A stretch of 64,000 nt of DNA from an uncultured Christensenella sp. (GTDB lineage: Bacteria > Bacillota > Clostridia > Christensenellales > UBA1242): the NCBI GenBank assembly GCA_949282135.1, contig CASDOR010000027.1, forward strand, positions 24,608-88,607, read 5' to 3'. Each line of letters opens with the position of its first letter. Within the stretch, counting starts at the first letter, position 1. The position numbers and the translations under genes are program-made. Under the pieces are notes generated by a model. That model worked only from the letters and a program-made list of their open reading frames with translations. It searched no databases and was not told the origin of the DNA. Below are positions 43,083 through 54,821 of this stretch, piece by piece.

Positions 43083-43096
43083 CAAACATTTGTTCG
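43083..43096. promoter_or_regulatory. LexA (SOS/Cheo) box upstream of lexA
   Basis: CAAACATTTGTTCG matches the Gram-positive consensus CGAACnnnnGTTCG with one mismatch. It lies about 60 nt upstream of the lexA start. Confidence 0.7.
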
Positions 43097-43104
43097 AATA
43101 AAAG

Positions 43105-44157
43105 TTATTCATCTCTTAGTTTTATTACATTTGCCACATTTCTACGTGCATCTTCTGAGATTGCAGCATAGTGTTTTTTTGTTGTGTTGACATCTTTATG
43201 TCCTAGTACGTCAGCCACAATATAAATGTCTTTAGTTTCTCTATATAAATTTGTACCATAAGTACTGCGTAATTTGTGGGGAGTAATATGTTTTAATGGT
43301 ACACATGCTTCACTATATTTTTTAACTAATTTTTCTACAGCTCTAACAGAAATTCTTTTATTTTGAATGGACAAAAATAAAGCCTTTTCATTTTTATCGA
43401 CATTTTCATTATTTAGTCTTTCCTCTAAGTAGTCTCTTAGGGCAGAGGCTACTTCGTCAGAAAAATATAATACAACCTGACTTCCACCTTTTCTTGTAAT
43501 CTTAAAACCATTTACTTCAAAGTCAAGGTCTTCAATATTAAGACCAACACATTCGCTAACACGAATTCCAGTGCCTAGCAATAGTGTAAGTAATGCGACA
43601 TCTCTTTTTTTTGTAATTTCATTATAAGACTTTTGTCTCTTTGAAAAATTTTGAGGGCTTTCTGCTTCATTAATAAGCTTTACAATTTCATCAACTTCAA
43701 GTCTTATAATTTCTTTTTCTCTAATCTTTGGTGTATCAATTTTTGCTGAGACATTAGAGGCAATTTTATCTTTCTTATAAAAATAGTTAAGTAAGCATCT
43801 TATTGAAGAGAGTTTTCTAGCCTTTGCTGAAGCGGCATTAGATAATATTTTTTTACTGTCCTTGCTATAAGAAGATAAATAGTTTAAGTAATATTCAATA
43901 TGAGAAGATGAAATTTTAGACAAATCATCATAATCTAACTCTTCTACATTTTTATCTTTAAACTCAAAAATCTCATTTATTAAAAACTCAAAAAAACTTT
44001 TTATGTCATGCAAATACTCTAGTTGTGTTAGAGTAGTGGTTTTATTTTCAATTCCAACAATAAAGTCCGAGCAAAAAGAGGGAAGTGTTGTTAGAATTTC
44101 ACCAATTTTAACTTTATTTTTAAAATCTCTTTCTTTGAAATAATTATTTTCATTCAT
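43105..44157 (-). CDS. Tyrosine site-specific recombinase (Xer-like, 350 aa)
   Basis: It has an N-terminal SAM-like core-binding domain and a complete catalytic set: R (GTGIRVSE), K (ITRKGG), HxxR (HKLRST), H (LGHKDV), Y (KKHYA). It lies outside the prophage repeats and immediately upstream of lexA. Confidence 0.85.
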   Translation of the reverse strand: MNENNYFKERDFKNKVKIGEILTTLPSFCSDFIVGIENKTTTLTQLEYLHDIKSFFEFLINEIFEFKDKNVEELDYDDLSKISSSHIEYYLNYLSSYSKDSKKILSNAASAKARKLSSIRCLLNYFYKKDKIASNVSAKIDTPKIREKEIIRLEVDEIVKLINEAESPQNFSKRQKSYNEITKKRDVALLTLLLGTGIRVSECVGLNIEDLDFEVNGFKITRKGGSQVVLYFSDEVASALRDYLEERLNNENVDKNEKALFLSIQNKRISVRAVEKLVKKYSEACVPLKHITPHKLRSTYGTNLYRETKDIYIVADVLGHKDVNTTKKHYAAISEDARRNVANVIKLRDE

Positions 44158-45549: not shown

Positions 45550-46446
45550 ATGAATGAGGAATTAATTAGAGATTTTGCTTTGAGAAAAGATAAGTCAAAA
45601 GTGCAGGAGTTTTATAATATTGCACTTAATATTTTGACGTCTGCATTAGATGAGCTTAATAATAAAAGTGAGAATGGTGTTATTAAGCTGTCTGAAGAAT
45701 CGACAAGAATTTTCCCAATGGGAGATTATACTAACGATACGTTCATAGATCAAACTGGTGAATTAGAAATTGTAGTTGCAACAAATGATGCACAAATTAT
45801 TTTAAACACTACCAATTATTCAAATGAGATTAAAAATAAAAAAAACAAGAAAAACACTGAAATATCACAAAGAGGGACAATTGATATAATAGTTTATAAA
45901 TTACTCGAAATATTAGTTTCATACTTTAGCGAAGATACGACATTGTTTTTGACCAACGATGGCATAAAAATTCTTTGTCTTAAAGAGTATGGATTTAAAA
46001 TGCTAATTAGATTTGCAACATATAGTGTTGATGATGAAAATGCAACCTTATTTTTTTGGGAGCCTGTAGCAAAGGTTCAAAATCCAGTAAACTTATTTGT
46101 TTATAATGAGCAGATGGAAAATAAAGACAAAGAAACTAATGGAAATTATAAAAGATTAGTTAGAATTTATAAAAATATAAGAAAAACCATTTTGCTTAAC
46201 AAGTGGTCAATGAGTAGTGATCTTAATAAGTATTTTGTTGAACTTATAATATATAATATTCCAAGTAATTTAATGTTAGGGAATGACATAGTAAAAATTT
46301 TCTATAAGTCCTACAACTATCTTGTAAATTGCAATATTTTAAGTTTTGCTTCCTTTGATAATAGACATATAAATACGTTTAGTTTAGCTAAAATAACATA
46401 CTATAAAATTAACAATTATATAAGATTGCTTAAAAAATTAGTTTAG
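45550..46446 (+). CDS. Pol-beta-fold nucleotidyltransferase-like protein (CD-NTase/OAS-like layout, acidic triad degenerate)
   Basis: 298 aa. The G[S/D]-x9-13-[DE]h[DE]h layout is present as MGDYTNDTFIDQTGELEIVV. A downstream helical segment (NGNYKRLVRIYKNIRK) is typical of OAS/CD-NTase-like proteins. No clear third Asp and no effector gene nearby. Confidence 0.3.
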   Translation: MNEELIRDFALRKDKSKVQEFYNIALNILTSALDELNNKSENGVIKLSEESTRIFPMGDYTNDTFIDQTGELEIVVATNDAQIILNTTNYSNEIKNKKNKKNTEISQRGTIDIIVYKLLEILVSYFSEDTTLFLTNDGIKILCLKEYGFKMLIRFATYSVDDENATLFFWEPVAKVQNPVNLFVYNEQMENKDKETNGNYKRLVRIYKNIRKTILLNKWSMSSDLNKYFVELIIYNIPSNLMLGNDIVKIFYKSYNYLVNCNILSFASFDNRHINTFSLAKITYYKINNYIRLLKKLV

Positions 46447-46451
46447 AGTAG

Positions 46452-46596
46452 GTACTATGCAAACTTATTTATAACAATCTAAGTAAGTACTATGCAAACT
46501 TTTTATTTATAAAAATAAAAATTATATATCTATTATGACTCAAAAATAATTTTTGCAAGATTTGTTTAAAAACTTAAATCAAGTACTATGCAAACT
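46452..46596 (+). repeat. Three direct copies of GTACTATGCAAACT
   Basis: Identical 14-mers at 46452-46465, 46487-46500 and 46583-46596, all in the same orientation, within the ORF-free region left of the prophage. Confidence 0.9.
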
Positions 46597-46965
46597 ATTT
46601 TTTATTATTTTAAAAATTATAATTAAAATTATATAAGAAATCTCAATTAGTTTTAAGCAAAAATCAGAATCAAAAAATTGATTTTTTTACAAATAATACA
46701 GTGACTTATAAAAAAAGTTCTTTGTCGAAAATTTTAAATGAGGAGTAATTCATATAAAAAATAAAATTCTGTCTCAGAGCGTTTTATATGAATAAAAAAG
46801 GGAAAATATCATTAGAAAAATAATTATAATTTTATAAAGCTATTTATAAAGTATATTTTGGCTTAGAAAAATTAATTTTAAGACTTAGACTTACAGATGT
46901 TTTTAAAAATAAATTTGTTCAAAAAACGCTTAAAAATCCTACTTTTTTGTTAAAAATATACGTAT

Positions 46966-46995
46966 CTATTCGTAAAACCTGTATTTTACGAATAG
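46966..46995. other. attL / dif-like core: perfect 12-6-12 inverted repeat CTATTCGTAAAA-CCTGTA-TTTTACGAATAG
   Basis: Read directly from the sequence. The right arm plus 4 nt of spacer plus TT (46980-46997) is repeated exactly at 52177-52194. Confidence 0.7.
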
Positions 46996-47000
46996 TTGTT

Positions 47001-47156
47001 CTAATAAGACTCAATAAAATTTTCTACTATTCTTCTTAGTACCTCGCTCCTCCCTTCTTCTTTATTCTTGCATATTTCGTCTAATTTTTTTATTGTTTTT
47101 TGTTTAAGTCTTATTGTTACAACTGCTTTTGGTGGTATTATTGATTTTGTTTTCAT
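47001..47156 (-). CDS. Ribbon-helix-helix (CopG/Arc/MetJ-type) DNA-binding protein, 51 aa (below ORF-track cutoff)
   Basis: Manual translation: MKTKSIIPPKAVVTIRLKQKTIKKLDEICKNKEEGRSEVLRRIVENFIESY. It reads as a beta-strand (VVTIRL), helix, G, helix. SD ggggag, own consensus promoter. The stop lies 4 nt inside the left direct repeat boundary. Confidence 0.6.
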   Translation of the reverse strand: MKTKSIIPPKAVVTIRLKQKTIKKLDEICKNKEEGRSEVLRRIVENFIESY

Positions 47157-47185
47157 TTTTCTCCCCTTTTTTGTATACGTTTATA

Positions 47186-47213
47186 ATTATATTTTATTTT
47201 AATTCTTTGTCAA
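47186..47213 (-). promoter_or_regulatory. Consensus sigma-A promoter driving the RHH gene
   Basis: On the minus strand, TTGACA (47213-47208), a 16-nt spacer, then TATAAT (47191-47186), about 30 nt upstream of the RHH start. Confidence 0.6.
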
Positions 47214-47238
47214 CTACTTTTTTAATTTTTTTCACACC

Positions 47239-47280
47239 AAAAAAAATACCCACTTGCTGACGGGCAAATTATCGCAAGTG
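47239..47280 (-). terminator. Hairpin plus T-run separating the Rep gene from the RHH transcription unit
   Basis: On the minus strand, CACTTGC-16 nt-GCAAGTG is followed by GGTATTTTTTTT. Confidence 0.45.
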
Positions 47281-47353
47281 CGGTATACCTAGCGAATAAA
47301 GCTTTAGCGACTGAGCGGAGCAGAAACTAACGTACAGCTGTATGCTCTACCCT

Positions 47354-47367
47354 ACTTTGCATAGTAC
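47354..47367 (-). repeat. Inverted, one-mismatch copy of the 14-nt motif (GTACTATGCAAAGT) inside the prophage non-coding region
   Basis: The plus strand reads ACTTTGCATAGTAC. The reverse complement differs from the host copies only at position 13. Confidence 0.8.
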
Positions 47368-47473
47368 TATAATTATATGCATTACATAAGTAATTCTCTT
47401 ACCCAGCATTTCCTGACGGGCTTATGCCGGCTCGGGCGCCGCTCGATAATAAAAAAAAAGAATAGTATTTCTA

Positions 47474-48493
47474 CTACTCTTTTTCTAGATAACGTTTTAG
47501 TACCTTAATCTTATTTTCTTTGGTCCTTTCTTGTACTGCTCTGTATTCTTCTCTGTTTAGATCCGTCTTGCTTAAGATTATCTCTTCTATGCGTTTTTGA
47601 GCTTCTTTTCTTCTTTGTTTTATTTCTTCCATTGTTTCGTGGTTTTCGACGTCGTACAGCTTGTCAAAATACCTTGCCGGTCTTACAGCTAGAGCTTTTC
47701 CTCGTTTGTTTAGTATAATTTCGTCATACTTGTATATATTGTCTTTATTTTCTTCGTAATAATCTCTCGCTATACCTGGTCTACGTGACATTCGAACGAA
47801 CTCTGGCTCTATGCCTAATTCTTCATATATTTTTGCTCCTTGTCCTTTTTGTTTTTTCATGACATACCTTGCGACATACCCGGCGCTGTCCCATGTTACA
47901 CTGCCTATACGTATTATTCCTTTCCCCCATAATTTTTGTATGTAATCGCTCGTCCATTGCACTTCACCCTTGTGGCTTTTTTCTGCTAATGTTAGGTCCG
48001 GTATGTGTGTGTTAAAAAGTATTGCGTGGTAATGTGGTCTTCCGCGTTTGTCTCCGTACTCACCGCACGAATAATATCTTGTATGCATTTCATAGTGCCT
48101 AGTTTGGTTGGTGTTTAGGTTGTTCAAGAAGTCCTTTAGGTCCTTCGGTCTTAGAGTTTCGACTATTTCTTGCTTGACTACCTCTCCGGTTTCTGTGTCT
48201 ATGTCTTGGATTATATTATATGGTAAGTGGTTGTTATCGTATGTTAGAGTGACGAAATAGTTCTCCTGGTACTTTTCAGCTTCGAGCATGCACCTTGTTG
48301 CCCACATGCGTGCATGGTCCAGTCTACATCCAATACAATTTCCGCATTGGACTTCTTGTACTGGGTATAGTCTACCTTTTATTTTTGCCCATGCGTTGCG
48401 TATAACTTCATTGTATTTTAAGATTTTAAGGTCTTGTTTTCCGTTATCTTTTATGCCTAAATTTACAGCTTTGAGTGGATGGTAACAGCTCAT
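47474..48493 (-). CDS. Microvirus replication initiation protein (VP4 / gpA-like rolling-circle Rep)
   Basis: 339 aa with MSCYHPL.. N-terminus, CGNCIGCR zinc knuckle, motif 1 FVTLTY, HUH motif RPHYHAILF and Tyr motif AGYVARYVMKK. SD aaggagg. Confidence 0.85.
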   Translation of the reverse strand: MSCYHPLKAVNLGIKDNGKQDLKILKYNEVIRNAWAKIKGRLYPVQEVQCGNCIGCRLDHARMWATRCMLEAEKYQENYFVTLTYDNNHLPYNIIQDIDTETGEVVKQEIVETLRPKDLKDFLNNLNTNQTRHYEMHTRYYSCGEYGDKRGRPHYHAILFNTHIPDLTLAEKSHKGEVQWTSDYIQKLWGKGIIRIGSVTWDSAGYVARYVMKKQKGQGAKIYEELGIEPEFVRMSRRPGIARDYYEENKDNIYKYDEIILNKRGKALAVRPARYFDKLYDVENHETMEEIKQRRKEAQKRIEEIILSKTDLNREEYRAVQERTKENKIKVLKRYLEKE

Positions 48494-48524
48494 TTTTTAA
48501 CCTCCTTAAAACCTCTTTCAGAGG

Positions 48525-48560
48525 GTCGGCACAATTCCCTCTTGTTGTAATTGTGCCGAC
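48525..48560. other. Perfect 12-bp stem-loop between VP2 and VP4 genes
   Basis: GTCGGCACAATT-12 nt-AATTGTGCCGAC. A second small hairpin (CCTCT-ttc-AGAGG, 48512-48524) is adjacent. Confidence 0.6.
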
Positions 48561-48609
48561 TGACACAAAATGTCCTTTTTTTTGTACATTTTGCACAAAA
48601 AATTTTGTG

Positions 48610-49032
48610 TCATTTGCCAAACCCTATATTGTAGTTTTTTGTTCCTTTTCCGCCTGCTATTATTTCTATCACTCTAATTGCGTTTGAGGCAAATTTTCCG
48701 CTACTTCCAGCACTTGCGTTGCTGTTTGCTGCAGTTCCGCTTGCTGTTGCTCCTCCAGGAGTATATGCTCCCATTCCTCCAGTTGCTGTAAGTATAGGGT
48801 TAATACCTGCAGCTTTGAGGTCTGCTACTTCTCTTTGGTGTGCTGTATTACTTAATCTTTCTTGATATTTTCTATTTATTTCTGCTTGTTCTGCATTGAA
48901 TAATCTGTTGATTTCTGCCTGTTCTGCGTTGTATGCACGGTCTCTTGATGCGCTGCCCCATCCTAGTGCATCCCCTAGATCGTTCCAAAATCCTCCGTAG
49001 TTGTTGCTATTTCCTATTGCTGATGTTGCCAT
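48610..49032 (-). CDS. Microvirus minor capsid / DNA pilot protein (VP2-like)
   Basis: 140 aa, Gly/Ala/Asn-rich, with the [17 protein letters not shown] signature seen in gokushovirus-type VP2. It has an internal duplication NAEQAEINR x2. SD aggagg. It sits directly after VP1. Confidence 0.6.
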
Positions 49033-49044
49033 ATTGTCCTCCTA

Positions 49045-50742
49045 TTAGTGATGGTCTATAAGTCCTGGTATGCTTGTAACAGGCATTGGTCGAGTGCACT
49101 TATAAGAAAAATAAAAGTCAGCTATCCATTGGTCTTCCACGGTTGATTGTACTGCAAGTGTACGGTCTACGTTGGCGGTTGTTTCTTGTATCCACGTTGG
49201 TCCTAAGATTGGTAAGCTTGAGTAATTGTCACCATAGTGCCAGCTGTCTAGACTCTGCGCGTAAGTGCTTCTTAGTGCCCCGGTTATTTGGTTAGGCTTA
49301 TACCTATATTCAGCCCATGCTTCTTGGTAGCCGAATGCTTCATTGTCACTTGCGTTTCCTTGAGCATATATTTCCTTGTTAAGAATTGCCTGTTCGCCTA
49401 TGTTCGCTAGACTTGGGAAGTAGAAATCTTCTCTTTTTGTCCTGGAGAACATTTTGTTTATGCCTTGCTGGTAAGAGTGTAAGGTTCTTACAACTGCTAA
49501 GCCTAAGATTATTTCGTGTTCGGTGAACGATTTTGTGAATGCTATTTCTTGGTCGGTTGTGTATGAGAATGCTGCAGTATTACCTTGAGGTGTTGTTGTA
49601 TCAGTACTAGAGGTTTGTAAAACCTGGTAGTTATTGATAGGTATACGTTTGCCGCCTAGGTATTCCGGTCTTTGCTGTCTTGCGTCAGGACTCGTAATTC
49701 CAAAGTGTGCTTTTATGATTTCGATATATCTTGTACCGCCTCTTGCGTCTTTTTCTAGCATTCTTTGTAATGCAAAGCTCATACGTAATTGGTTGACAGT
49801 ACTTGCTGTTGCTTGACTTAGATCTGTAATTACACCGCTATATTCTTTTCTTTCGTCTAGTCCTAGCATATATTTTGTTCCTTCGTTACTTCCCATATTT
49901 ATTTTTTCTGCGTCACTATTTGCACCTTTTTTAACGTCTTGGCCATTTACACTATATAATCCTAGAGTGTTATTTACTGTATTACTATGTTGTCCTCCTA
50001 GGTATACTTTTGATCCTTCTGGATTGCTAAAATAATTAATTCCGATTGCATTTCCATTGCCTATTACTGGAGCAGTATCTCCTAGTGGCAATAGTACATC
50101 TGGTCCTTTTTGTGGTTCTGGTAGGGCGCTGGTAAAATAGTCGTGATATTTTGCGGCTTTGAATGGCATGCCTCCGCATTGTAAGTCTGTTACATAATCT
50201 GTACCATTATTACCGGTTGTTGCACTGTCTCCAAGTGATAGAGCTGCTGGGTCTTGTAAGTTCTGGTCCCTAAACCAATCGTTAATGGTTAGAGTATATG
50301 CGCGTGGAAATAATGCGCTTACAGATATGCCACTTACTCCGGTTGGTATGCCCATATGGTCCATTATTGTCCCTTTTTGCCAGCCTCCACTAGGTGCTGT
50401 TATTTGTGGTATTTCGTATTCTGTCTCTTCTTCCCATGCTGAGGTTGTATTTTCGCCCATGAAGTTCTTCCAATGCTCCCATACAAGACGATTTGGCACA
50501 GCAAAAAAGTATATATCAAGGTATGCTTGGTCCATTACTGGGTGTATTGGTGTTGAGCCTCTGAGAAGTGTTCCAACGTTGATTTTTATTGTGTCTCCTG
50601 GTAATACTTCGTCTACTAGAATTGGTATAATTTCTCCGGTATTCATTGATGTGAGTTGCTTATGTGAGCGGTCAAACGTGCTTCTTGGTATGTCAATATT
50701 TGTTTGATTAATTGCAAATCTATTAGTTGCGTTGATGTTCAT
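49045..50742 (-). CDS. Microvirus major capsid protein (VP1 / F-like)
   Basis: 565 aa. The N-terminal block (IPRSTFDRSHKQLTSMNTGEIIPILVDEVLPGDT) is the hallmark VP1 start, and the size is typical. SD ggaggt. Confidence 0.85.
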   Translation of the reverse strand: MNINATNRFAINQTNIDIPRSTFDRSHKQLTSMNTGEIIPILVDEVLPGDTIKINVGTLLRGSTPIHPVMDQAYLDIYFFAVPNRLVWEHWKNFMGENTTSAWEEETEYEIPQITAPSGGWQKGTIMDHMGIPTGVSGISVSALFPRAYTLTINDWFRDQNLQDPAALSLGDSATTGNNGTDYVTDLQCGGMPFKAAKYHDYFTSALPEPQKGPDVLLPLGDTAPVIGNGNAIGINYFSNPEGSKVYLGGQHSNTVNNTLGLYSVNGQDVKKGANSDAEKINMGSNEGTKYMLGLDERKEYSGVITDLSQATASTVNQLRMSFALQRMLEKDARGGTRYIEIIKAHFGITSPDARQQRPEYLGGKRIPINNYQVLQTSSTDTTTPQGNTAAFSYTTDQEIAFTKSFTEHEIILGLAVVRTLHSYQQGINKMFSRTKREDFYFPSLANIGEQAILNKEIYAQGNASDNEAFGYQEAWAEYRYKPNQITGALRSTYAQSLDSWHYGDNYSSLPILGPTWIQETTANVDRTLAVQSTVEDQWIADFYFSYKCTRPMPVTSIPGLIDHH

Positions 50743-51241
50743 TTGTTGTTGTACCTCCGCTATTAGTTGTTTGCGTTGTAGTTGTAGTTACTGTTTCTTT
50801 GGTTTCTTCTTTTAGCTTTTTGCCTGTTGCTTTTTCGTATACTGCTGCATAAGTTCCATTTACTATACTTTCGACGTAATTTTGTACTGAGTAGTCTAGA
50901 GCTTTGCGGACTTCGAGTGGTTCTTGTGCAAATAGGTTTTCTCCCTTAATCCTTAGATTCTCCCACTCTGCTACAGTGCGTGGTAATTGTGTTAAGTCTA
51001 GGTAACTACCATTTCGTTTGTTGAGTAGTTCCGTCTCACCAGCTGCTACTCTCTTGAGTAAGTTTTCAATTTTAGTTTCTTCGAGTGGTGCTTGTGTTCT
51101 GTCATAGATATTTTTTGTTTTTTCAGTTTTTACGAGCACTTTGACACCTTTTTTTATTTGCATTTCATAGACCGGGATTTCTTTTTCTCCGCTTGGTGTT
51201 GGTGCGTTGGTGTAATAGTTATAATTTTTTCTAAATTCCAT
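50723..51241 (-). CDS. Microvirus internal scaffolding protein (VP3-like)
   Basis: 172 aa. YLDLTQLPRTVAEWENLRIKGENLFAQEPLEVRKAL resembles the conserved VP3 C-terminal region. It overlaps the VP1 start by 20 nt. Confidence 0.55.
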   Translation of the reverse strand: MEFRKNYNYYTNAPTPSGEKEIPVYEMQIKKGVKVLVKTEKTKNIYDRTQAPLEETKIENLLKRVAAGETELLNKRNGSYLDLTQLPRTVAEWENLRIKGENLFAQEPLEVRKALDYSVQNYVESIVNGTYAAVYEKATGKKLKEETKETVTTTTTQTTNSGGTTTNEHQRN

Positions 51242-51243
51242 AA

Positions 51244-51495
51244 TTACACCTCTTCTTTCAATTCTGATAGATTTGTGATAAATCTTACTTGTGGTACAAT
51301 TTCCCCGGTTTCGTCATTATAACTACCTACGCAATATAGTTGTTTGTCTTTGTAGTTTGTTTTAACTTCGTTATCTCCTGGATTATTTATCATATTTTTT
51401 ACGCTTCTGATTGCACTTCCGTCATTGACTCCGGCAAATGGTGTTGTCATTGCTCCTACTATAGTATCTTTGATTGTATATAATTTCATATTCAT
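51244..51495 (-). CDS. Hypothetical phage protein (83 aa)
   Basis: Strong SD (aaggag). It starts MNMKLYTIKDTIVGAMTTPFAGVNDGSAIRSVKNM.., which resembles a small non-structural protein family I recall from gut microviruses (not verifiable here). Confidence 0.55.
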   Translation of the reverse strand: MNMKLYTIKDTIVGAMTTPFAGVNDGSAIRSVKNMINNPGDNEVKTNYKDKQLYCVGSYNDETGEIVPQVRFITNLSELKEEV

Positions 51496-51591
51496 TTCTT
51501 ATTTCTCCTTTTTATTTTGTTTTTGTGATATTTCCGTTTTTGTCTATATATCCTATTATTTCGCCATCTTCTGTAACTGTGTCTATTATTC

Positions 51592-51717
51592 TCATAGTCT
51601 TGTACCTCCGCGTGTGTTCATTGGCGTGATATTTATTTTTTTTGTACTACTTGCTGTGTTTCGGAATATTTTTTTATCTAGGTTCTGATTTTTTATCTTC
51701 TTTCGTTTGTTTGCCAT
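51592..51717 (-). CDS. Highly basic 41-aa peptide (candidate J/ORF8-like DNA-packaging protein)
   Basis: Manual translation: MANKRKKIKNQNLDKKIFRNTASSTKKINITPMNTRGGTRL (12 K/R, 1 acidic). SD aaggag lies 7 nt upstream. Its stop overlaps (ATGA) the start of a further 27-aa ORF (51512-51595) that has SD ggaggt. Confidence 0.45.
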   Translation of the reverse strand: MANKRKKIKNQNLDKKIFRNTASSTKKINITPMNTRGGTRL

Positions 51718-51835
51718 CTTTTTCTCCTTTTAATTCTTTTTTTATTTTTTGTAATTTTTCTTGGTCTCTCTCTTCCCAGCTTAAGCTTTTTTGATACAAG
51801 TATTCTAGTATTGCCTGTTCTCTTGTCATTTTCAT
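51674..51835 (-). CDS. Hypothetical 53-aa charged protein
   Basis: Manual translation: MKMTREQAILEYLYQKSLSWEERDQEKLQKIKKELKGEKDGKQTKEDKKSEPR. It starts 4 nt after the stop of the 84-aa ORF and overlaps the basic-peptide ORF in another frame. Confidence 0.35.
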   Translation of the reverse strand: MKMTREQAILEYLYQKSLSWEERDQEKLQKIKKELKGEKDGKQTKEDKKSEPR

Positions 51836-51838
51836 TTT

Positions 51839-52093
51839 TTACAATTCCTTTTTTATATAATTTTTGATTGTGTTTTGTAATGTCTTATTATTAATTTCTA
51901 AGTTTTGTATTTTGCTTAGATTTTGTATTTGCGTTATACAATTTTTTAGTTGTTCGTTAATAATTTTATCTATCTTTTCAATTTCTTCACTGTTTGTTAC
52001 TTTCTTTTTTTTCTTGAATAATGCTATTAGTGAGAATGTCATAGATAATACTATTACTACTATTTGTAATATGTATAAGACTGTTTCTAACAT
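51839..52093 (-). CDS. Small membrane protein (N-terminal TM helix + coiled coil), first gene of the phage operon
   Basis: 84 aa. TVLYILQIVVIVLSMTFSLIALF is followed by KKKKK and a helical repeat-like tail. SD aaaggaaa. Confidence 0.55.
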   Translation of the reverse strand: MLETVLYILQIVVIVLSMTFSLIALFKKKKKVTNSEEIEKIDKIINEQLKNCITQIQNLSKIQNLEINNKTLQNTIKNYIKKEL

Positions 52094-52162
52094 TTTTGTA
52101 TTTCCTTTATATTATATTTGTATACACTTTTTGACTTTTAAAAAAGAGAATGTATTCTCTTA

Positions 52163-52192
52163 GTATTCGGGAAGATTGTATTTTACGAATAG
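52163..52192. other. attR: half-degenerate copy of the dif-like core (GTATTCGGGAAG-ATTGTA-TTTTACGAATAG)
   Basis: The right arm is identical to attL. The left arm matches the attL left arm at 8 of 12 positions. The spacer differs in its first two nucleotides. Confidence 0.65.
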
Positions 52193-52284
52193 TTTATGAC
52201 AATAAAGAAAAAAGAGAAAACAGCTAAAAATTAAGTGTAAGGGAGAATTTTTGTGCTCTTCCCTCTTTTTTATACGTTTATTAA

Positions 52285-52956
52285 TTAATATATTTCTAGC
52301 AAAAAAGCATAATTTTTTAGTTCATCTCTACTTTCTTTCCATGTTGGACAAACTTTTTCTAACTCCATATAAAATCTTGGCGAGTGATTGAGTTCTTTTA
52401 AATGAGTGAGTTCATGAAAAATTACAAAATCAATTAGCTTTGGTTTTACCATTGCGAGTCTCCAATTTAATTTTATTACTCCAAATCTATCACAACTTCC
52501 CCATTTTGCCCTGTAACTACCTATAATAATTTTACTAACATCATATTTGTAATTCTGTATAATGTCCTTAAATCTTTTTATAATTACCCTATCTGCTATT
52601 TCTTTTACTATTTTTTTTATATAAAAGGTCGTCTTTCCTGATTCGTAATATTTTTTAGGTAGCAAAAAATATTCTTCAGTAAAAGATGGTTTACTGACTT
52701 TATTTGTTGGAACAATGACATATTCTTTTCCAAATAGTAAAATATTTTCTAGTTTCATTACACTAGAAAATTTACTTGATAAAACACGCGCTTTGTTAAT
52801 TTTCTTTTCAAGTAATTTTTCTTTTGATTTTAAGATACTTTCTACCTTATCAAGAGCTAAGCCATAAGGACAATAGATGGTTATGTCCCCTTCCCTACTT
52901 ATTGTGATTTTAACACTTTTTCTTTTTTCTCTTATAATACTTGCTTTCTCAATCAT
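52285..52956 (-). CDS. DUF45/YgjP-like zinc metallopeptidase (M48-related)
   Basis: 223 aa. The C-terminal motif (DFVIFHELTHLKELNHSPRFY) has HExxH plus a downstream H, as in the YgjP/DUF45 family. Confidence 0.7.
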   Translation of the reverse strand: MIEKASIIREKRKSVKITISREGDITIYCPYGLALDKVESILKSKEKLLEKKINKARVLSSKFSSVMKLENILLFGKEYVIVPTNKVSKPSFTEEYFLLPKKYYESGKTTFYIKKIVKEIADRVIIKRFKDIIQNYKYDVSKIIIGSYRAKWGSCDRFGVIKLNWRLAMVKPKLIDFVIFHELTHLKELNHSPRFYMELEKVCPTWKESRDELKNYAFLLEIY

Positions 52957-53135
52957 AATTTAATACCTTTCTATATTTTATCATATTTTAAATAATTAAA
53001 AAAATCATTTAAAGTCAAATTTTGTTGACTAAAAAAAAACTATTTTGTAATATATAATTATATCTTAGATAATGTTTTTTATACAAGTTTTAAATGGTTG
53101 GATGACATTTATTTAGTAAATTAAGAAGGTGAAAA

Positions 53136-54821
53136 ATGCTTGAGTTTTCTGATAATAAAGCAACTAGAGGTAGTATCTCTCAAATTATAATTACTGCTTT
53201 GAGTTCTGGAGACAAATATGGTTATGAGATTTGTAAGGAAATTGAGAGATTGTCGAATGGTGTTTTAGTTTTAAAACAACCTAGTTTATATAGTAGCTTA
53301 CGTCGTATGGAGGAGCAAAATCTTATTTCTTCGTACTGGCAAGATAGCGACATTGGAGGAAAGAGACATTATTATTCTTTAACTGAAAAAGGTAGAGAGA
53401 TTTATGAAGAGAATAAAGATTCGCTTGACATGAATGAACTTATAAACAACTTACCTCTCAGTGAATTAGATTTGGAGGATTTTCAGCCAAATTCCAATAA
53501 TTTTGAAAGTAATAAGTCTACAGCAGTTGCAAGTCAGGAAAACTTATTTAATCTAGTTAACAAAACAAATGAGATAAAATTAATTAAAGAAGATGATAAT
53601 GATAACGAGAACAAATCGTTTGTTCAATTTGATTTGTTTGACCAAAAAGTTAATTTTATAAAGGACAATTCAAAAAATACAGACAAAGTGAACTTGTATT
53701 CAAATAAATATGAAAACCTAGACAAGCACGAAGAAGAAATTGAGCCTGATAAAACTGCAGAATTAGATCAAGAGATTAAGTTGGATCAAGAGATTAGACA
53801 AAAAGACCATTTAGATAATCAAGTTATTGAGCCTATTACAAGGAGTTCTCTATTTGGTAATCATGATAATAGTTCTATTCAAGATGATAGATCAGACATT
53901 ATTAGTGAAGGACCGCCTTCAGATAGTCAAAAAATTGAAGACGAAGCAAATAATCACAATTATGAAGTTGATGATGAGAATGCTACTACTATAAATGAAG
54001 TTGAAATAGTTGAGGATGAAGTAAAGTATGATCCTGAGAAAATAAAATGGAATAATATTTCGACATATGACCAAGATGATGAGGATTTAAAACAAAAATC
54101 AAATGATTATAAAAGTATAATTGGTCAATTATACAGTGATTCCAAGCTCCCTGACCCATATGAAGAAAATAAATTTTATACTTTTAAGGAGATCTTCCCT
54201 ACTGCACAGGTTAAAGAACAACATAAAGATAAAATTAAAACTACTGGCATAATAGACGCATTTGTTAACGAAAAGAATAATGTTAACTCCAATTTGGACA
54301 ATTTGACAACTTTAAGCGAGCAATTTAATTCGCAAGGTTTAAAAATAAAAATACATAATAATGATAATAATAAAAATAATTTAAGATTATATTCCGATAT
54401 AAATAAGTTAAATATGACCACATCATGGTACGTATCAATTATTATGATGCTTGAAATTGTGCTTTCATATGTGATATTAGATAACTACGATTATGTAATA
54501 AGCAAACAATCTTTAATGTTTTTTCTTGGGGGTTCTATTGCTATCAGTTTATTAATTGTCGCAACATTAGAAAATTTATTTGATAGATTTAAGCTGATTA
54601 TAATAAAAAGACAGTTTAAAAGAGATTTTGTTAAAGCATTTTTGTTATTTATATTTATTTGCGTTTTAACGTTTGCTATTTGTTTGATATCAGGGATGCA
54701 GAGTTTGGGACAAATTGAATATTTAAGTTACTGGTTGGTGCCTATTTTAGTTGCTTCAAACATAATAACCTATTGTATAATATTTCATTCCCTGCTAAAG
54801 TCTAAACATTATAATAACTAA
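53136..54821 (+). CDS. Membrane-anchored PadR-family transcriptional regulator
   Basis: 561 aa with an N-terminal PadR wHTH (GDKYGYEICKEIERLSNGVLVLKQPSLYSSLRRMEEQNLISSYW..GGKRHYYSLTEKG), a ~330-aa acidic/Asn-rich linker and about 4 C-terminal TM helices. Confidence 0.7.
   Translation: MLEFSDNKATRGSISQIIITALSSGDKYGYEICKEIERLSNGVLVLKQPSLYSSLRRMEEQNLISSYWQDSDIGGKRHYYSLTEKGREIYEENKDSLDMNELINNLPLSELDLEDFQPNSNNFESNKSTAVASQENLFNLVNKTNEIKLIKEDDNDNENKSFVQFDLFDQKVNFIKDNSKNTDKVNLYSNKYENLDKHEEEIEPDKTAELDQEIKLDQEIRQKDHLDNQVIEPITRSSLFGNHDNSSIQDDRSDIISEGPPSDSQKIEDEANNHNYEVDDENATTINEVEIVEDEVKYDPEKIKWNNISTYDQDDEDLKQKSNDYKSIIGQLYSDSKLPDPYEENKFYTFKEIFPTAQVKEQHKDKIKTTGIIDAFVNEKNNVNSNLDNLTTLSEQFNSQGLKIKIHNNDNNKNNLRLYSDINKLNMTTSWYVSIIMMLEIVLSYVILDNYDYVISKQSLMFFLGGSIAISLLIVATLENLFDRFKLIIIKRQFKRDFVKAFLLFIFICVLTFAICLISGMQSLGQIEYLSYWLVPILVASNIITYCIIFHSLLKSKHYNN

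Follow-up and report, generated by a model that had tools for sequence, protein, structure and literature searches.

Few gut phages are as abundant as the microviruses. Temperate members that integrate at dif have been described, namely proviruses of Bacteroidetes (PMC3091885) and the enterobacterial gokushovirus EC6098 (PMC7062461); no regulator is described in either paper, and the word "repressor" appears in neither. A survey of 4,077 microvirus genomes found methyltransferases and lysis enzymes as the only accessory genes, and the word "regulator" does not occur in it (PMC9239249). The Xer-exploiting inoviruses and PM2-like phages, by comparison, carry a lysogeny module made of a repressor (RstR/P16), XafT/P15 and a dif-like attP (PMC12715192). 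Here we examine a 64,000-nt stretch of contig CASDOR010000027.1 from an uncultured Christensenella sp. (the window), which contains an integrated gokushovirus-like microvirus that ends in a small gene for a ribbon-helix-helix (RHH) protein, with its own promoter and next to the attachment site. This gene was picked out in a first-pass annotation made by a model from the letters alone, which also remarked that microviruses are generally considered to lack a repressor; indeed, our literature searches for microviruses with an RHH protein, CopG or a repressor yielded nothing relevant. The RHH protein is probably a repressor or lysogeny regulator of its clade that has not been described before.

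The RHH gene and the prophage that carries it

The gene, its expression signals and the prophage boundaries are located as follows (window coordinates).

47001..47156, minus strand: RHH gene, 51 aa including the Met; ATG at 47156, stop codon TAG at 47003-47001
47166-47161, minus strand: Shine-Dalgarno (SD) sequence GGGGAG, 4 nt 5′ of the RHH ATG, read from the sequence
47186..47213, minus strand: RHH promoter with sigma-70 consensus, TTGACA (47213-47208), 16 nt, TATAAT (47191-47186)
47239..47266, minus strand: second, weak hairpin (stem 47266-47247) with T8, z = -0.59; doubtful terminator
47450..47480, minus strand: rho-independent terminator over the Rep stop codon (stem 47480-47459 plus T9), -8.6 kcal/mol, z = -2.85
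46980..52176, minus strand: integrated gokushovirus-like microvirus, 5,197 nt, the crossover being ambiguous within an 18-nt shared core
46966..46997, unstranded: attL, perfect palindrome CTATTCGTAAAA-CCTGTA-TTTTACGAATAG, the same as the attB of the empty site and the presumed host dif
52164..52194, unstranded: attR, with the RHH-proximal arm and core kept and the other arm degenerate and phage-derived; on the minus strand ACTATTCGTAAAA TACAAT CTTCCCGAATA
52139..52160, minus strand: hairpin AGAGAAT-ac-ATTCTCT with T6, just 3′ of attP in the circular form
43105..44157, minus strand: host tyrosine recombinase, XerS-like; best NCBIfam model XerS, 197 bits, below the 267-bit cut-off

The open reading frame (ORF) falls below the cutoff of the ORF track, and its sequence and its SD are exactly as the first-pass annotation had quoted them; an AGGAG-type SD is present in all members of the family described below. 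The RHH layout proposed there was borne out by profiles and by structure prediction. The protein matches Pfam RHH_1 (PF01402) over residues 13-49 with E = 9.2e-7 and 29 bits, above the curated gathering score of 20.5, and PHROG families labelled as transcriptional repressor with E = 7e-6, and the family profile matches a CopG-family regulator in the PDB (E = 5.5e-4). An AlphaFold model of the monomer, built with 34 family sequences, has a pLDDT of 86 and shows the order strand, helix A, tight turn, helix B expected of the superfamily, with an extended segment at residues 11-18 (pLDDT 91) and helices at 19-32 and 36-50; DSSP calls no strand because the monomer alone was modeled. The top Foldseek matches in the PDB are all RHH proteins (ParD; CopG, with TM 0.78 and a root mean square deviation of 1.8 Å; ORF56 of pRN1; Arc; and AmrZ), with E-values that are weak because the domain is short. 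The 51-residue ORF is a genuine phage gene, predicted from its sequence and model to code for a DNA-binding protein of the CopG/Arc type. In this class, the dimer places an antiparallel beta-ribbon in the major groove of repeated operator subsites, the beta-strand being the element that reads bases.

The promoter is the sole 12/12 sigma-70 match within 46400-53200, so that the earlier claim that it is the best in the element holds, and in 12 of the 13 genomes of the family the promoter has TTGACA and at least 11 of the 12 hexamer positions. Insulation from the upstream Rep gene had been ascribed to a hairpin with a T-run at 47239-47280. This structure is weak, and its stem is not kept in the variant prophage L003 (L numbers are our handles for related genomes and contigs). 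The conserved terminator is instead the one over the Rep stop codon, which has an equivalent in all family genomes and acts as a conserved insulator, closing the long phage operon and separating it from the RHH unit. The hairpin at 52139..52160 is likely the terminator of the RHH transcript in the circular phage, and L045, L046, L048, L033, L053 and L139 have equivalent hairpins with T-runs after attP.

Several observations assign the gene to the phage. On L054, a metagenomic contig of 3,369 bp whose flanks share 97 % identity with the window, position 46997 is joined to 52177; this empty site has the palindrome once and no RHH ORF, which indicates that the RHH gene is phage DNA. A host origin of the gene was considered and rejected, because of the empty site and because circular phage genomes carry it. 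The RHH region has a host-like GC content of 0.276, against 0.39-0.43 for Rep, VP2 and VP1, and other small phage genes are equally AT-rich. The RHH leader and the host DNA on the far side of attR share a 42-nt similarity, which was discarded as a sign of host origin, since it is lost in L054 and such lengths are expected by chance in AT-rich DNA.

The phage genes run in the order 84-aa, 53-aa and 41-aa (J/VP8-like) ORFs, VP5, VP3 scaffold, VP1 capsid, VP2 pilot protein, VP4 Rep and RHH. With ~5 kb on one strand, Pfam and PHROGs identify a gokushovirus-like set (Phage_F capsid, REP, pilot protein, Chlamy_scaf, Phage_ORF5 and a basic J/VP8-like peptide), and matches at the DNA level comprise 537 phage records, foremost Microviridae sp. 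and other named faecal microviruses. The att direct repeat (46967-46997 and 52164-52194) begins 3 nt past the RHH stop codon, and not 4 nt as first noted. The attL palindrome folds as an RNA hairpin of -13.9 kcal/mol (z = -4.8), its pattern is unique in the window, and it lies where the GC skew switches, from +0.2 to +0.33 until ~46 kb to negative values from 56 kb.

Neither Pfam nor PHROGs detected a recombinase among the phage ORFs. The XerS-like gene of the host is situated 3 kb from the att site, beside a true lexA, and its orthologues (64-98 % identity) fill more than 100 protein clusters, a few of them named "MAG: Clostridia bacterium", which indicates that it is a housekeeping gene from an uncultured low-GC lineage rather than an integrase of phage origin. 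In five host contexts, the distance between a recombinase of this type and the att site is 0.6-3 kb, and genetic linkage to its own dif site is an established property of XerS (PMC2731167). From this sequence context, the att site is presumed to be the host dif, and integration is presumed to be catalysed by the XerS-like recombinase. The phage fits the definition of integrative mobile elements exploiting Xer (IMEX), which use host Xer for integration at dif without a recombinase of their own.

Conservation and distribution of the RHH module

The exact 51-aa protein is known solely from the window prophage and from one variant. A single-sequence word-index search recovers the query protein alone, and the family was found by an exhaustive HMMER search, which gave relatives of ~50 aa (the closest with 65 % identity), followed by a profile search, which gave 35 proteins. 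All nine strong members whose context was examined are located directly after Rep in microvirus genomes; these contexts include prophages in host contigs of 12-140 kb, a tandem double prophage (L033) and circularly permuted contigs of 5.1-5.5 kb, and in circular contigs the first phage gene comes next after RHH. An ORF in the equivalent slot is also present in four circular microvirus genomes of GenBank that derive from the faeces of moose and rodents; it is not annotated in NC_040328 (MG641184.1, 1302-1450; Alces alces faeces associated microvirus MP12 5423; L032, L051), and is labelled "hypothetical protein" in OM869517, OQ686930 and PQ006699. The analysis therefore flags a gene that GenBank microvirus records miss or call "hypothetical". 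P0040, a weak member amid purine and arginine biosynthesis genes, marks the boundary of the family.

Across 13 distinct genomes or prophages the order is Rep, rho-independent terminator, structured GC-rich spacer, promoter, RHH, dif-like site, usually a second terminator, and first late gene, in keeping with the conservation anticipated for a real gene. The proximity of RHH genes and dif-like sites in other microviruses, suggested as a survey in the first-pass annotation, is found in 12 of the 13, with the site 0-35 nt 3′ of the RHH stop codon and a consensus of yTwTTCGCAAAA-N6-TTTnnCGAAwr; of its two arms, the one on the RHH side shows good conservation, the other being degenerate in free phage copies. 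The remaining genome, L135 (1340-1560), has RHH and promoter and no dif-like site after RHH or elsewhere in its intergenic DNA. The ratio of nonsynonymous to synonymous differences per site (pN/pS) in RHH is 0.016-0.16, with pS up to 0.7, indicating that the ORF codes for a protein under purifying selection.

Among the relatives in IMG/VR, the family model found RHH in none of 28 Rep relatives and in none of 80 capsid relatives, and the top-ranked relatives of the window phage by both capsid and Rep are RHH-bearing genomes. With 0 of these 108 relatives having it and its bearers ranking closest, RHH is a feature of one clade, rare among microviruses overall. On the coding strand, the dif type described above is confined to RHH-bearing genomes (6/8, versus 4/108 weak antisense matches). 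Neither the capsid protein nor the RHH alignment retrieved a matching prophage from reference-genome contigs, and the RHH alignment gave no match in JGI metagenome contigs.

The variant prophage L003 has Rep DNA 87.5 % identical to that of the window. From the -35 hexamer to the end of attL, the two are identical save for two spacer substitutions, with promoter, RHH and attL 100 % identical. Since synonymous sites of RHH diverge freely in other lineages, this identity reflects recent exchange and not constraint. Host flanks vary between lysogens while the module is constant.

Two arrangements deviate from the simple prophage. In L033 (3523-14950, on a scaffold shared with L034), two complete related microviruses are integrated head-to-tail, each ending in RHH; the internal junction has the phage-type site with a degenerate arm, and the outer junction has the host-type arm, ~600 bp upstream of an XerS-like gene. 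Such tandem arrays are a usual feature of phages that exploit Xer. In L138 (1608-1733, and in L137, 798-923) the promoter is separated from RHH by an extra hydrophobic ORF of 41 aa, which overlaps the start of RHH, so that the unit is bicistronic.

Candidate operators and the proposed role of the RHH protein

In members of the clade, a genome-specific word is shared by the RHH promoter/leader, typically in the -35/-10 spacer and just past the -10, and by the stretch before the first late gene. In the window phage, GTATACAAA occurs exactly twice in the 5,197-nt genome, the probability of at least two copies being 0.005 in shuffled sequences. These and the words of other genomes are as follows.

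47170..47178, minus strand: candidate operator GTATACAAA, copy 1 of 2, in the RHH leader
52117..52125, minus strand: candidate operator GTATACAAA, copy 2 of 2, inside palindrome TGTATACA, abutting a TATAAT and 24 nt 5′ of the first late gene start
L048: 20-mer TAAATCGTTAACGAAATAAT, in RHH promoter/leader and late region
L135: 24-mer with inverted repeat TAATTACAnATGTAATTA, in RHH promoter/leader and late region
L052: TGTTACACAAA, with GTAAC/GTTAC inverted repeats
L032 and L138: TTGTTAAACA
L053: GTTTAACAAA / GTTAAACAAA, twice in each region
L139: TGTTATACA

We compared promoter/late-region pairs using information-weighted 10-mers with cross-genome controls; the longest common substring was dropped as a test, A/T runs dominating it. 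With SDs trimmed, matched pairs scored higher than cross-genome pairs (Mann-Whitney p = 1e-4; p = 3.5e-4 with 11 independent genomes), which gives statistical support, short of proof, to the shared words as putative operators. Additionally, GTTAACGAAATA and CGTTAAC..AAATA are conserved noncoding blocks in L045, L046, L048 and L033, despite a pS of 0.4-0.7. In the family alignment the most variable residues are those of the beta-strand, which matches the variable operators because the beta-strand reads bases in RHH proteins. In L135, RHH and the gene after it are each preceded by an identical 24-nt segment, which contains the SD as well as the operator-like inverted repeat. L046 (3180-3215, a circular-type contig) and L033 (9270-9300) have RHH proteins one residue apart, and the late-gene word of L046 is degenerate (CGTTGACAGAAGAGATAAC versus CGTTAACAAAATAATAAC); as a speculation, L046 could be an operator variant of virulent type.

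The presence of shared words at the own promoter and before the late genes fits an autoregulated repressor. The balance, in our judgement, tips slightly in favour of RHH, its strong promoter and the dif-like attP being a compact lysogeny and regulation module of this temperate gokushovirus-like clade, with RHH acting as an autoregulated repressor that has a second operator on the long operon. RHH dimers would bind genome-specific short palindromic or repeated operators within and just downstream of their own promoter, resulting in autoregulation, and a second copy just upstream of the long operon (small genes, VP5, VP3, VP1, VP2 and Rep), which would keep capsid and Rep expression low in a prophage or episomal carrier state. 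Since the operon ends with Rep, its control would shut down rolling-circle replication together with virion production, and the same binding might provide superinfection immunity. Repression, immunity and the identity of the target promoter are predicted here from the position of the shared words. Of the roles first expected for the gene, namely repressor, immunity factor or accessory factor of Xer recombination, the candidate operators would favour a transcriptional repressor, and the last one is weakened by L135.

Some observations count against such a repressor. The best shared word is of low complexity in L039, L041 and L046, and the operator signal thus comes from a subset of genomes. A canonical promoter before the first late gene is not recognisable in most genomes, so the late genes may rely on read-through from the RHH promoter. 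Gokushovirus prophages of E. coli display lysogeny and immunity without any described repressor (PMC7062461). Finally, no induction route is evident, because RHH has no sensor or cleavage domain and no LexA box was found in the regulatory DNA of the phage. Induction controlled by LexA was rejected, the sole good box, CAAACATTTGTTCG (43083-43096, with one mismatch to CGAAC-N4-GTTCG), being located between the XerS-like gene and lexA, upstream of this host gene.

A bolder proposal, which we regard as rather unlikely, is that integration itself operates a switch and that the module is a portable lysogeny cassette. Integration may cut the lytic genes from their promoter, because attP separates RHH from the remaining co-directional genes and the sole consensus promoter is that of RHH. 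In the circular form this promoter would drive RHH and then, across attP and a leaky terminator, the whole operon; the terminators after attP look modest, and L052 has none, which is compatible with read-through. XerS-mediated integration at attP would split the transcription unit right after its first gene, so that RHH would keep the promoter at one prophage end and the capsid and Rep genes would be left promoterless at the other, guarded by the RHH operator. Excision, or tandem arrays as in L033, would reconnect the promoter and the lytic genes, and the promoter-RHH-attP unit could be exchanged between microviruses, setting their specificity for host dif and immunity.

Of the other explanations, an accessory or directionality factor for Xer recombination appears improbable to us. 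Here RHH would bind on both sides of attP and form a nucleoprotein complex that stimulates or directs integration or excision by XerS, by analogy with XafT of TLCphi or ArgR/PepA at cer. The dif-like site so close to the RHH stop codon in nearly all genomes, the restriction of the coding-strand dif type to RHH bearers and the candidate binding words flanking attP on both sides agree with this role, as does the complete identity of promoter, RHH and attL despite 12.5 % Rep divergence, as if they travelled as a unit. However, L135 keeps RHH, promoter and duplicated operators in the absence of a dif-like site, which weakens a purely Xer-accessory role, and the upstream words are located in the -35/-10 spacer and at +1, ~190 nt from attP, a classic position for repressor operators. 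Moreover, RHH resembles neither XafT nor another of the known Xer activators, adjacency to attP weighs little where a genome of 5 kb offers just two intergenic regions of appreciable size, and the gokushoviruses of E. coli integrate at dif without such a protein (PMC7062461). We give the same low credence to a copy-control or origin-accessory function, whereby RHH would limit Rep synthesis, or would aid or limit the HUH Rep at a structured origin between Rep and RHH, leading to a stable episome; CopG of pMV158, ORF56 of pRN1 and RHH relaxosome proteins would be the parallels. The closest folds do include CopG and the copy-control protein ORF56, there is a weak NCBIfam match to the RHH N-terminus of BfmA/BtgA mobilisation proteins, and RHH directly follows Rep and a GC-rich structured intergenic region. 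Persistence in the form of immunity-conferring circular DNA is possible for gokushoviruses (PMC7062461), and with Rep last in the long operon, repression at the operon start would limit Rep too. Yet RHH is not upstream of rep nor co-transcribed with it, as copG is, being downstream, with its own promoter and a conserved terminator between the two; the 116 nt that precede Rep in the window yielded no shared operator word, and the candidate sites lie outside the structured region, at the RHH promoter itself and ahead of the first late gene.

A host-directed regulator ("moron") or an orphan antitoxin, which would either repress a host gene, for which the archaeal viral aCcr1 homologues that reprogram the host cell cycle would be a parallel, or neutralise a host toxin, seems very improbable. 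The best NCBIfam match is indeed the aCcr1 family, with 30 bits versus a cut-off of 60, the top folds include the RHH antitoxin domains of ParD, TacA and HicB, and the strong constitutive promoter aims out of the prophage toward host DNA; but the candidate binding words are in phage DNA, and the host flanks differ between lysogens that share a constant module. None of the 13 genomes has a toxin gene next to RHH, and the 51-aa protein stops with helix 2 (residue 50-51), leaving no toxin-binding tail; the type II antitoxin reading was rejected for want of a partner gene and of this C-terminal tail. An autoregulated repressor remains our preferred role. A conserved RHH gene with its own promoter beside attP offers a testable handle on the silencing and immunity of temperate microviruses (PMC7062461), at a small experimental scale: a 51-aa protein, candidate operators of 9-24 bp and a synthesisable genome of 5.2 kb.

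Flanking sequences and comparison with known systems

The surroundings of the module show further features. The spacer between Rep and the RHH promoter (47230-47450, minus strand) is GC-rich and structured, with a block at ~47300-47345 perfectly conserved in L003 and a 41-nt GC-rich segment present in the window and not in L003; all RHH family genomes have a comparable spacer, which may be the complementary-strand or Rep origin. An Rfam scan of 46300-53200 gave no structured-RNA match at E <= 1. Three copies of the motif (A/G)GTACTATGCAAAC are present in the host intergenic region beside the att site (46458-46603) and four in the empty site L054; a single phage copy, in opposite orientation within the spacer (47353-47375), overlaps a TATAAT and is not kept in L003. 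The 116-nt gap before Rep (48494-48610, minus strand) holds two strong inverted repeats, TGACACAAAAT...ATTTTGTGTCA and GTCGGCACAATT...AATTGTGCCGAC. Across attR, a promoter-like TTGTCA-16-TACAAT (52175-52202, minus strand), with its -35 in host DNA and its -10 in the att core, is aimed at the phage late genes; its counterpart in the empty site is a weaker TCGTCA-16-TACAGG, and the attR version may be due to chance. A separate assembly of the prophage (L002, a Logan contig equal to window 46968-53024) breaks exactly inside the attL palindrome, as would be expected if reads from the empty site or from circular phage coexist in the sample. Beside dif/att, the host gene at 45550-46446 (plus strand) encodes a CD_NTase_C domain, weakly matches an anti-phage nucleotidyltransferase (41 bits versus a cut-off of 350) and may be a defence gene at a phage integration hotspot.

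Among known RHH proteins, CopG (RepA) of pMV158 and Arc and Mnt of P22 resemble the phage protein in their size of 45-53 aa, in consisting of the RHH domain only, and in the profile and fold matches. Their operators overlap their own promoter, as would those predicted for the RHH gene, and in the case of CopG the replicon also has an HUH Rep. Unlike in those systems, the RHH gene is not co-transcribed with rep and has no antisense RNA partner, and identity is only ~20 %.

The temperate microviruses of Bacteroidetes and EC6098 share with the window phage the gokushovirus-like genes, a dif-like integration without phage recombinase, attL and attR as imperfect direct repeats, and the existence of a circular form. 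The present clade differs from them by the addition of a dedicated promoter and RHH gene, and by a host with a single XerS-like recombinase ("single" as judged from the 64-kb window) that comes from a low-GC lineage, the closest named relatives of which are metagenome-assembled genomes of Clostridia.

The closest parallel in architecture is with the IMEX modules of CTXphi-type inoviruses (RstR) and PM2-like double-jelly-roll phages (P16/P15). All of them lack a phage integrase, use host Xer and insert at dif, with a small repressor gene (in our case, a putative one) beside the dif-like attP at the prophage edge; the module apparently moves between phages, and tandem arrays are formed, here in L033. 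As differences, the present regulator is an RHH and not a helix-turn-helix protein, with a role predicted from sequence; the microvirus clade has no XafT/P15 partner; its host has a single XerS-like recombinase with a palindromic site, instead of XerCD; and the virus is a 5.2-kb microvirus. We detected no homology to RstR/P16 or XafT/P15, and no other regulator-like ORFs in any of the 13 genomes. The RHH module is hence analogous in architecture to the RstR/P16 module and not a member of it by homology, and a third, unrelated virus group, the Microviridae, would now join the Xer-exploiting elements built on the "repressor plus dif-like attP" design.

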